Below are positions 15,347 to 16,053 of a stretch of DNA of 58,017 bases, piece by piece (position 1 is the stretch's first letter; each line of letters begins with the position of its first letter). The translations under genes and the position numbers were made by a program. The stretch lies in IMG/VR virus record IMGVR_UViG_3300037089_000557; one strand, 5' to 3'. The notes below the pieces were generated by a model. The model saw only the letters and a program-made list of their open reading frames with translations. It was not told where the DNA came from and searched no databases. The DNA comes from a virus.

Positions 15347-15715
15347 ATGGAAAATGAAATTAAGTTTGATGAAAATACCAGGAAGCTAATCAGGGCATTC
15401 CGCGCCAAGGTTTGTAATGGACAACATGCAACTAGGGAAACCCTATTGGCGTATGCCTTTCTAAAGGATCGCCCTTACATTGCGCTTGAGCGCAAGATCA
15501 ATGAGGATCACGAGAGTTTCGGGATTGGCAGAGATAGTTTCCTAAGCTATCTTGTGTACGGTATTAGAAGAGAGATATTGCAGGCTAGTAAAAATCTTGG
15601 CTTTGATAAAGAAGTTGAAGAACAAATAGCTAAAGAAATTGAAAGCGAAATACGCCAATGGATTATGAAGAAGTATGAAAAAGAATCTGAAATATCAGAA
15701 GAGAAGGCTGCATGA
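15347..15715 (+). CDS. Hypothetical protein
   Basis: AGGAG RBS 7 nt upstream of ATG MENEIKF; stop TGA overlaps the next ATG (ATGA). Confidence 0.5.
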   Translation: MENEIKFDENTRKLIRAFRAKVCNGQHATRETLLAYAFLKDRPYIALERKINEDHESFGIGRDSFLSYLVYGIRREILQASKNLGFDKEVEEQIAKEIESEIRQWIMKKYEKESEISEEKAA

Positions 15716-16053
15716 CGTAGATATCTGAAGGCGATAAGCTTTATCTAATCACTCGTTCTGATCTTTCAAACGGTTATCAAGCAGTTCAAAGCTGCCACGC
15801 CCTACGCGAATTCATTCAGCAACATCCTGATATAGATAGTGAGTGGTATTCCAAATCAAATTATTTGGGATTGCTCTCTGTCAAAAATGAGCATGAGCTT
15901 ATGGATTTGTTTAGGAAAGCTTGCCATAATGGCATTAGGTGTTCAGCCTTTCGGGAGCCAGATATTGGTGATCAAATTACAGCTATTTGTCTAGCTCCTG
16001 GGCCGAGGTCCAAACGACTTTGCTCGCGCCTTCCATTAGCCTTGAAAGAATGA
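15712..16053 (+). CDS. pth2: Peptidyl-tRNA hydrolase, PTH2 family, with an in-frame TAG as codon 3 (needs suppression, or is a pseudogene)
   Basis: ATG ACG TAG ATA TCT...; the downstream frame DKLYLITRSDLSNGYQAVQSCHA...WYSKSNYLGLLSVK...ICLAPGP...LALKE matches the PTH2 core (K.V.VVR.DL..GKGK.AAQCSHA...W...G..KVVVK...GIGPGP...LKLY); ATG overlaps the upstream TGA stop. Confidence 0.65.

Follow-up and report, generated by a model that had tools for sequence, protein, structure and literature searches.

A conserved start-proximal stop codon in a PTH2-like phage gene, matched by the anticodon of a linked suppressor tRNA

Introduction

How a gene whose third codon is a stop could give rise to a protein is the question raised by a locus in the IMG/VR virus record IMGVR_UViG_3300037089_000557, analyzed here as one stretch of 58,017 nucleotides (nt) that we refer to as the window. 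In this locus, a gene related to the peptidyl-tRNA hydrolases of the PTH2 family begins with ATG ACG TAG and is followed on the same strand by a gene for a transfer RNA (tRNA) with the anticodon CUA, i.e., an amber suppressor. A first-pass annotation, made from the letters of the DNA, had proposed that the active protein needs readthrough of the TAG and that the arrangement is a deliberate regulatory circuit. From comparison of the locus with its relatives, we consider it likely that translation of the PTH2-like gene is licensed by the phage's own linked tRNA(CUA), which would read the TAG at codon 3.

In-frame stop codons read by a phage tRNA are known from the Lak and crAss-like phages that use genetic code 15, where a tRNA(CUA) encoded by the phage reads in-frame TAG and where it has been proposed that the in-frame stops postpone expression until suppressor tRNA has appeared (bioRxiv 10.1101/2021.08.26.457843; PMC9523058). 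Similarly, a synthetic feed-forward loop in Escherichia coli, with an amber codon in the target gene and a suppressor tRNA as second input, gave AND-type, low-leak and delayed expression (PMC7969014). For other phages with suppressor tRNAs, targets have been sought or discussed: XacN1 carries two tRNA(CUA) genes, and readthrough of 18 TAG-terminated open reading frames (ORFs) gave no target (PMC5852040), while those of RsoM2USA were merely speculated on (PMC8504454). A survey of jumbo phages notes PTH2 genes with no word of an early stop (PMC7824862), papers on stop-codon recoding in phages leave a PTH2-like gene with an early stop unmentioned, and no earlier description of a start-proximal stop in such a gene was found in the literature searched. 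Suppressor-dependent expression itself is known; what is new is that a PTH2-like gene has a dedicated stop close to its start, which is conserved and corresponds to a suppressor linked to the gene.

Results

Anatomy of the locus

The elements of the locus, all on the plus strand, are the following.

15329..15715, +, upstream ORF of 128 amino acids (aa), ending in a TGA that shares bases with the start codon of the PTH2-like gene (ATGA)
15701..15707, +, purine-rich, Shine-Dalgarno-like GAGAAGG, 4 nt 5' of the ATG (spacer CTGC)
15712..15717, +, start ATG and the single sense codon ACG, the two codons ahead of the stop
15718..15720, +, in-frame amber TAG as codon 3, next base A (ATA), kept in homologues; the proposed gate
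15721..16053, +, PTH2-fold domain of 110 aa plus TGA, with GYQAVQSCHA and FREPD motifs
16071..16146, +, tRNA with anticodon CUA (amber suppressor) and encoded CCA, 17 nt 3' of the gene's stop

The frame of the PTH2-like gene (ATG 15712, ACG 15715, TAG 15718-15720, ATA 15721) spans 113 codons and closes at TGA 16051-16053; after the TAG it continues with ATA TCT GAA GGC GAT AAG CTT TAT CTA ATC ACT CGT. The ATG-ACG-TAG-ATA start, the ATGA overlap with the upstream TGA and the GAGAAGG reported in the first-pass annotation are thus all present. An in-frame TGA at 15688-15690 blocks the frame further upstream, and ATG 15712 is therefore the sole start ahead of TAG 15718. On the 3' side, the first canonical in-frame starts are TTG 15865 and ATG 15901, both past the GYQAVQSCHA motif and the conserved N-terminal half of the domain, so that no canonical start except ATG 15712 yields the conserved domain, and the earlier statement that no alternative ATG, GTG or TTG precedes the catalytic motif holds. 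No RNA structure stands out around TAG 15718 (z = -0.28). The upstream ORF had no significant Pfam or PHROG match and is conserved and syntenic in L098 and L118, two of the homologous loci, which are designated by L numbers.

The string ATGNNNTAGAT occurs four times in the window against 3.0 expected, i.e., it is not enriched, and the three further copies sit away from gene starts. Evidence beyond chance therefore rests on the homologues.

The early stop is kept among divergent homologues

A megablast search of GenBank phages with the 12 kb surrounding the gene gave no match. The nearest GenBank relatives were huge uncultured phages of 462-735 kb, with four homologues at 42-55% identity. A profile-guided scan of IMG/VR yielded 78 loci, and with the addition of the window and the four loci from huge phages there were 83; loci were taken with 10 kb flanks and homologues were grouped into 48 clusters at 80% protein identity. 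A metagenome scan added 80 loci, 74 of them scorable.

A start-proximal stop was present in 54 of the 83 loci, where 1-7 sense codons separate the first in-frame ATG from a TAG that lies 13-23 codons before the motif GYQxxQxxH. It was likewise present in 36 of the 48 clusters, again after 1-7 variable codons, and in 46 of the 74 scorable metagenome loci, and it was kept down to approximately 40% identity. The four huge phages begin with ATG AAG TAG ATT, ATG TCG TAG ATT, ATG AAC AAT TAG ATT and ATG ACA TAG ATT, and this ATG-(1-2 codons)-TAG start recurred in nine IMG/VR relatives. Counting the ATG, the stop is preceded by two codons in 29 loci, three in 18, four in five and eight in two; the codons between ATG and stop differ among loci in both number and sequence, and the stop itself is retained. 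In most clusters, TAG (or TAA) and not a sense codon is accordingly found near the start, which answers the question that the first-pass annotation had posed to an alignment of homologues. Between the window and its closest relative, L098 (82% aa identity), the synonymous divergence (dS) was 1.28, so that synonymous sites are saturated; since the stop has been retained nonetheless, a neutral codon would not be expected to persist there. The ratio of non-synonymous to synonymous divergence (dN/dS) of the ORF after the stop was 0.11 for the same pair, indicating purifying selection.

The context of the stop is constrained as well. In the stop-bearing loci, the next base was a purine without exception, both in the 54 from IMG/VR and GenBank and in the 46 from the metagenome scan; classic studies of amber-suppression context found that a purine in this position favours suppression over termination. 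The codon after the stop was ATT, ATA or ATC in 30 of the 54 loci and GTA or GTT in 18; AAC, AAT, AGC, ACA, AAA, GGG or GAC stood there in other loci (including those of GAP32, CBB, BF, XbC2 and Arash). The isoleucine or valine after the stop aligns with the internal isoleucine of M-A-T-I-K-M-G-D-K-L-Y in stop-less homologues, and on this alignment the alternation is best read as a constraint at the amino-acid level. In all loci, the conserved domain shares the frame of the ATG and the stop, with no +1 shift of the prfB type between them. Phages of hosts that use Shine-Dalgarno sequences carry GAGGA or AAGGAG 6-8 nt before the ATG, GAGGA being found in the cultured enterobacterial phages. One homologue, the ENA protein P0008 ('MCLQVKEGDKLY...'), had been translated by a public pipeline with TAG as glutamine, at full length from the upstream ATG.

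The type of stop matches the anticodon of the linked tRNA

Of the 36 stop-bearing clusters, 32 had a matching suppressor tRNA within 10 kb; it was invariably encoded on the strand of the gene and often lay 20-2500 nt away. TAA takes the place of TAG in three lineages, namely L076/L164 (ATG ACT TAA ATT), L087/L175 (ATG ACG TAA GTA) and L214 (M-T-stop-I, with ATA after the TAA), and all three are neighbored by tRNA(UUA), of which L214 has two. Every TAG locus with a nearby suppressor, the window among them, has the CUA anticodon, and not a single mismatch between stop type and anticodon was found across relatives. The TAG had previously been linked to the downstream tRNA, and the conservation of the stop, its covariation with the anticodon and the same-strand linkage are in line with that proposal.

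Genes for tRNAs with anticodon TTA were also observed beside stop-less PTH2-like genes, at L091 4405-4481 (LR745208), L092 3362-3434 (the Lak megaphage Lak-B7) and L062 1355-1430; the neighborhood of gene and tRNA thus persists in phages that lack the gate.

The encoded protein belongs to a distinct subfamily within the Pth2 fold

Starting six residues past the TAG, the window protein matched Pfam PTH2 (PF01981) at E=1.8e-8 and 35 bits (cut-off 23) over profile positions 2-104 of 115, and a profile of nine homologues matched Methanocaldococcus jannaschii Pth2 (PDB 2zv3) over its full length (E=1.4e-7). The AlphaFold2 model had a predicted local distance difference test score (pLDDT) of 96.5 and a predicted template-modelling score (pTM) of 0.89, and the 14 best Foldseek matches in the PDB were all Pth2 or Bit1 (template-modelling score 0.61-0.79, probability 1.0), the top ones being Pth2 at 0.75-0.79. 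Both the family profile and the alpha/beta fold of Pth2 are thus found in this protein.

With archaeal and eukaryotic Pth2 (PF01981) it shares the fold, the Pfam family and the motifs TRxDL, Q..HA and an acidic E-P-D. In the alignment to 2zv3, however, the second lysine of GKGK falls on the invariant tyrosine of GYQ, and the aspartate of RDAG on Glu79 of the invariant E79-P80-D81. We take these two positions to be those of Lys18 and Asp86, the catalytic residues of Saccharolobus solfataricus Pth2, which would then not be conserved. The 'unmistakable PTH2 core' of the first-pass annotation is consequently borne out as to the fold, while its GKGK lysine is an invariant tyrosine here. Given this replacement, that the window protein acts as a peptidyl-tRNA hydrolase is something we infer from fold and family. 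The GYQ proteins are a distinct subfamily within the Pth2 fold; in PHROGs they constitute phrog_1866, 'unknown function', and some GenBank mycobacteriophage records label the subfamily peptidyl-tRNA hydrolase.

The early stop recurs in cultured phages and disrupts their annotation

The same kind of start was found in cultured phages.

Tenacibaculum phage pT24: ATG AAA TAG ATA, with a tRNA-Sup 2.6 kb upstream
Ralstonia phage RsoM2USA: AAGGAG-N8-ATG TTG TAG ATT
Serratia phage BF: ATG ACG CAC TAG AAT
Cronobacter phage GAP32 and Pectobacterium phage CBB: ATG GCA CAA TAG AAT
Yersinia phage fHe-Yen9-04: ATG TCT CAC TAG ATT
Xanthomonas phage XbC2: ATG GCT CAC TAG AAT
Acinetobacter phage ME3: ATG ACT TAG ATT, with a tRNA(CTA) 430 nt upstream
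Salmonella phage Arash: ATG CTG TAG AAC

The PTH2-like gene is absent from the GenBank annotation of RsoM2USA, BF and fHe-Yen9-04, and it appears as a 'hypothetical protein' truncated to a downstream start in GAP32 (GAP32_397), CBB, ME3, pT24 (gp293) and Arash (gp84c), because gene callers halt at the early TAG. The records in which it is unannotated or N-terminally truncated are MG752970 (near 68853-69218), NC_041917 (gap 286080-286417), NC_042116 (gap 289112-289449), NC_019401 (GAP32_397), NC_041878 (gp573), NC_041884 (gp266), NC_049383 (gp293) and OQ632216 (gp84c/gp85c). Further Erwinia and Yersinia phages match, with the annotation 'none' at the matching stretch. A systematic annotation error is thereby exposed in several GenBank records of cultured jumbo phages.

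In XacN1, the homologue of the window's subfamily is a stop-less domain fused to the C-terminal end of ORF364, and the targets of the XacN1 suppressors are therefore not explained by this gene. XacN1 also has a canonical PTH2 as a separate gene, ORF295, without an early stop on reading; as a candidate target of the XacN1 suppressor tRNAs it was rejected, being a GKGK Pth2 with a normal start. According to a published table, the canonical PTH2 of RsoM2USA is likewise a separate gene, ORF157.

The neighborhood of the gene reads in the standard code

Under code 11, 82% of the window falls within ORFs of at least 100 aa, and TAG ends about 17 of its 78 likely ORFs (approximately 22%). No convincing in-frame TAG was found in other genes of the window. 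A TAG at 18838, between two in-frame ORFs, was considered and judged to be an ordinary stop, as the following ORF comes with an ATG of its own and the L098 orthologues are out of frame. Of the features of code-15 phages, the window (58 kb) thus has the matching suppressor tRNA, without the many internal stops or the low code-11 density. In L098, a contig of 392 kb that is syntenic over approximately 20 kb, two in-frame TAGs were found, both in the PTH2-like gene, and none in other real genes. Furthermore, 84 loci were scanned systematically for start-proximal stops in further gene families, and none was found that lacked a normal start nearby.

Additional TAGs do occur inside the body of the PTH2-like gene in L002/L065, L010/L098, L055 and L064, where they align mostly with Glu, Gln or Asp. 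All-against-all tblastn of the loci was swamped by conserved antisense and off-frame ORFs, so that only these in-gene TAGs were usable with regard to the inserted residue. The position equivalent to the early stop varies in stop-less homologues (Thr, Ala, Ser, Pro), and the identity of the residue inserted there is therefore probably immaterial.

Features of the suppressor tRNA

The tRNA at 16071-16146 was recognized by ARAGORN (anticodon CTA) and by the Rfam tRNA model (59.4 bits). Its anticodon loop, CCCUAAA, has C33 where U33, which is near-universal in tRNA anticodon loops, is usual; the T loop is TTTAAAT and the D loop lacks GG. The CCCUAAA loop with C33 was also observed in the suppressor tRNAs at L096 2498-2571 (phage ME3) and L063 5664-5738, and its recurrence in unrelated phages suggests that C33 is tolerated or selected. 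Two apparent mismatches in the acceptor stem (4:69 and 5:68) are common to the suppressor tRNAs at L177 7981-8053 (CBB) and L178 7395-7470 (fHe-Yen9-04) and to the tRNA(CTA) genes of L055, L056 and L058, while position 2:71 covaries in this set; the mismatches may reflect a non-standard geometry of the acceptor and T arm. No terminator was found near the window tRNA, and a promoter-like site at 16042-16070 was rejected as meaningful, being too close to the tRNA 5' end.

In L098, the gene is directly followed by a tRNA(CUA) of 91 nt with a long variable arm (10351-10441), compared with 76 nt for its window counterpart; compensatory changes separate the two in the acceptor and anticodon stems. 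When compared with their nearest standard tRNAs, the suppressor tRNAs were heterogeneous, and that of the window was nearest to tRNA-Glu-like genes that flank stop-less homologues. Such tRNA-Glu-like genes were seen at L024, L027, L028, L031, L032, L037, L041 and L043-L045, mostly in higher-GC contigs. They have an apparent 8-nt anticodon loop, ATTTCAAC, for which ARAGORN gave the anticodons 'ttca' or 'tc' and which can be read, depending on the register, as UUC (Glu) or as UCA (opal suppressor). A tRNA with the opal-suppressor anticodon TCA was also present in L222 (OBEQ010130270.1), about 1 kb 3' of a homologue truncated 5' by the contig edge.

Other features of the window

Further genes of the window are the following.

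10555-13293, +, protein of 913 aa with MVP_shoulder (E=1.9e-27) and Vault_3 (E=2e-8), i.e., major-vault-protein shoulder and repeats, kept in L098; such domains are unusual in a phage
16363-17361, NAD kinase
23822-25690, +, radical-SAM-like protein (weak Pfam matches), apparently interrupted by an intein with a LAGLIDADG domain
47680-49305, CCA-adding enzyme
49724-50746, protein of the GMP-reductase/IMPDH family

The window holds 19 tRNA genes (962-3265, 27410-31561, 36123-36310 and others), some of them longer than usual: tRNA-Met with 82 nt, tRNA-Gly(tcc) with 83 nt and tRNA-Pro with 79 nt.

Discussion

According to the mechanism that we propose, ribosomes would initiate at ATG 15712, where the ATGA overlap may couple initiation to termination on the upstream ORF, and at codon 3 either terminate with release of fMet-Thr or accept the tRNA(CUA) and continue. 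Without the charged suppressor no protein would be made, and with it the full protein would be; the output would correspond to the product of two inputs, the mRNA and the processed, charged suppressor, as in an AND or feed-forward gate. A translation-related enzyme would in this way be produced only where the suppressor tRNA is present and active. A stop within the first few codons would keep the cost of failure low, the only product then being a di- to octapeptide; that so early a position also favors the tRNA over the release factor is speculation on our part. As to its purpose, the gate would most likely serve as a delay or licensing step or scale the enzyme to suppressor activity. Readthrough of host and phage stops would yield stalled ribosomes and peptidyl-tRNA, and a hydrolase scaled to the suppressor might then be of use; another possibility is that the suppressor tRNA is a substrate on which the enzyme acts. 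The conserved stop, its covariation with the anticodon and the same-strand linkage argue, at the level of sequence, for the earlier proposal of a readthrough-dependent circuit. Two other routes past the stop were considered and rejected: initiation at the TAG by an initiator-like tRNA(CUA), as the tRNAs lack initiator features and a conserved Shine-Dalgarno sequence and ATG lie just upstream, and hopping over the stop, as there are no matched take-off and landing codons.

The arrangement resembles several known systems in part. The E. coli prfB gene, encoding release factor 2 (RF2), is autoregulated through an early in-frame UGA that is passed by a +1 frameshift and senses the gene's own product. 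As in prfB, we find a gene of translation-factor type with an early in-frame stop whose decoding would set its own expression; unlike in prfB, the frame is unchanged and the component sensed would come from a separate tRNA gene. The bar minigenes of phage lambda are free-standing units of Shine-Dalgarno sequence, AUG, sense codon and stop, toxic when Pth is limiting. The window shares with them the order of Shine-Dalgarno sequence, AUG, one sense codon and stop as well as the link to peptidyl-tRNA hydrolase, but here the mini-frame is fused in frame to a PTH2-like domain and paired with a matching suppressor tRNA. In code-15 phages, internal stops are numerous, affect a large number of genes (chiefly those for structure and lysis) and fall at unconserved positions, and the coding density under code 11 is low, whereas here a single gene has one conserved start-proximal stop beside the tRNA in standard-code neighborhoods. 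Compared with the engineered suppressor loop of E. coli, the window arrangement is natural and conserved, and its target is a translation-related enzyme.

A number of points weigh against licensing by the linked suppressor. Expression and charging of the tRNA and its decoding of TAG 15718 are predictions from sequence, and its efficiency is uncertain, given C33, the TTTAAAT T loop and the GG-less D loop. An active suppressor would also extend the approximately 22% of window ORFs that end in TAG, and the code analysis covered 58 kb of this genome, so that wider recoding may occur elsewhere. Four stop-bearing clusters (L166, L169-171) have no suppressor within 10 kb, and neither do L003 and L004 have one nearby, in flanks of only 3 kb. 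Conversely, four stop-less clusters adjoin suppressor tRNAs, which indicates that the coupling is not obligatory, i.e., that it is strong rather than absolute. RsoM2USA, which has no suppressor near the gene, encodes its one tRNA(CUA) elsewhere (PMC8504454).

Against this background, the alternatives can be weighed. ATG-ACG-TAG could be a separate mini-ORF, with the protein initiated or reinitiated at the weak start ATA or ATT after the stop and no need for a suppressor. The 30 loci with ATT, ATA or ATC in that position would suit this reading, as would the ATG found soon after the stop in L034/L122, L068/L156 and L247, and mini-ORFs of two to three codons, as in lambda bar, cause peptidyl-tRNA drop-off. 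We nevertheless regard it as very improbable. GTA or GTT stands after the stop so often that reinitiation is unlikely, the remaining post-stop codons (AAC, AAT, AGC, ACA, AAA, GGG, GAC) are no more usable as starts, and the pattern of isoleucine and valine has the look of an amino-acid constraint. The spacing of the Shine-Dalgarno sequence suits the ATG and not a codon 9-12 nt further on; the mini-frame, rather than standing free, is always in frame with the domain; and covariation of stop and anticodon would not be predicted. The first-pass annotation had itself named initiation at a non-canonical post-stop codon in homologues as an outcome that would tell against readthrough, and the many GTA, GTT, AAC and similar codons do not bear it out. 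Hardly more credible is that the short ORF acts as a sensor, in which slow termination and drop-off of fMet-X-tRNA report on the capacity of release factor or peptidyl-tRNA hydrolase, readthrough being one output. In all stop-bearing loci the stop falls among the first 2-8 codons, the range in which such drop-off is most frequent, and the gene product is folded like the enzyme that recycles these peptidyl-tRNAs; yet neither the peptide nor the last sense codon (AAG, CTA, ACG, ACA, ACT, AAC, TTA and others) is conserved, and a sensor alone leaves synthesis of the full protein unexplained, so that it would complement licensing by the suppressor and not replace it.

The possibility that the whole phage uses code 15, with TAG 15718 an ordinary sense codon devoid of a regulatory role, seems to us unlikely, if somewhat less so than these two. 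It draws on the gene-body TAGs of the relatives mentioned above, on the affiliation of the closest relatives with huge-phage groups of known recoding and on the limited span of genome in view. A sense codon, however, would not stay start-proximal at 40-80% identity while its neighbors turn over; TAG terminates ORFs throughout a window that is dense in code-11 genes and holds no other in-frame TAG, the in-frame TAGs of L098 are confined to this gene across 20 syntenic kb, and the records of cultured phages that share this start follow the standard code at normal gene density. Finally, the TAG, being one in-frame stop from one metagenomic window, might be a sequencing or assembly error, or the gene a decaying pseudogene, and automatic annotation of related records does skip or truncate it. 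We give this practically no weight: the same feature recurs across independent contigs, more than 100 of them, and at least nine phages that were cultured and sequenced independently show it too, and the dN/dS after the stop and the confidence of the AlphaFold2 model speak for an intact protein. The non-functional pseudogene that the first-pass annotation had allowed for is contradicted by that dN/dS and by the recurrence in cultured phages.

Licensing by the linked suppressor remains the reading that we favor, and a broader picture may be sketched more tentatively, with rather less than even confidence. The PTH2-like gene and the suppressor tRNA might form a self-contained mobile module; the gene might be the main or only natural target of the 'orphan' suppressor in standard-code jumbo phages, including those of the XacN1 and RsoM2USA types; the module might be the evolutionary foothold for genome-wide reassignment; and the enzyme might deal with what suppression leaves behind or have the suppressor tRNA as its substrate.

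The pairing of an early stop with a matching tRNA is widespread in jumbo phages, recurs in dozens of phage lineages, including phages grown in the laboratory, and provides a concrete, conserved candidate target for jumbo-phage suppressor tRNAs that have hitherto had no known target, directly testable in phages of Salmonella, Cronobacter, Serratia, Yersinia, Pectobacterium, Acinetobacter and Ralstonia. It would represent a natural counterpart of the synthetic gate built from an amber codon and a suppressor tRNA, and it suggests an intermediate stage on the way to stop-codon reassignment, in which one gene is gated before many.

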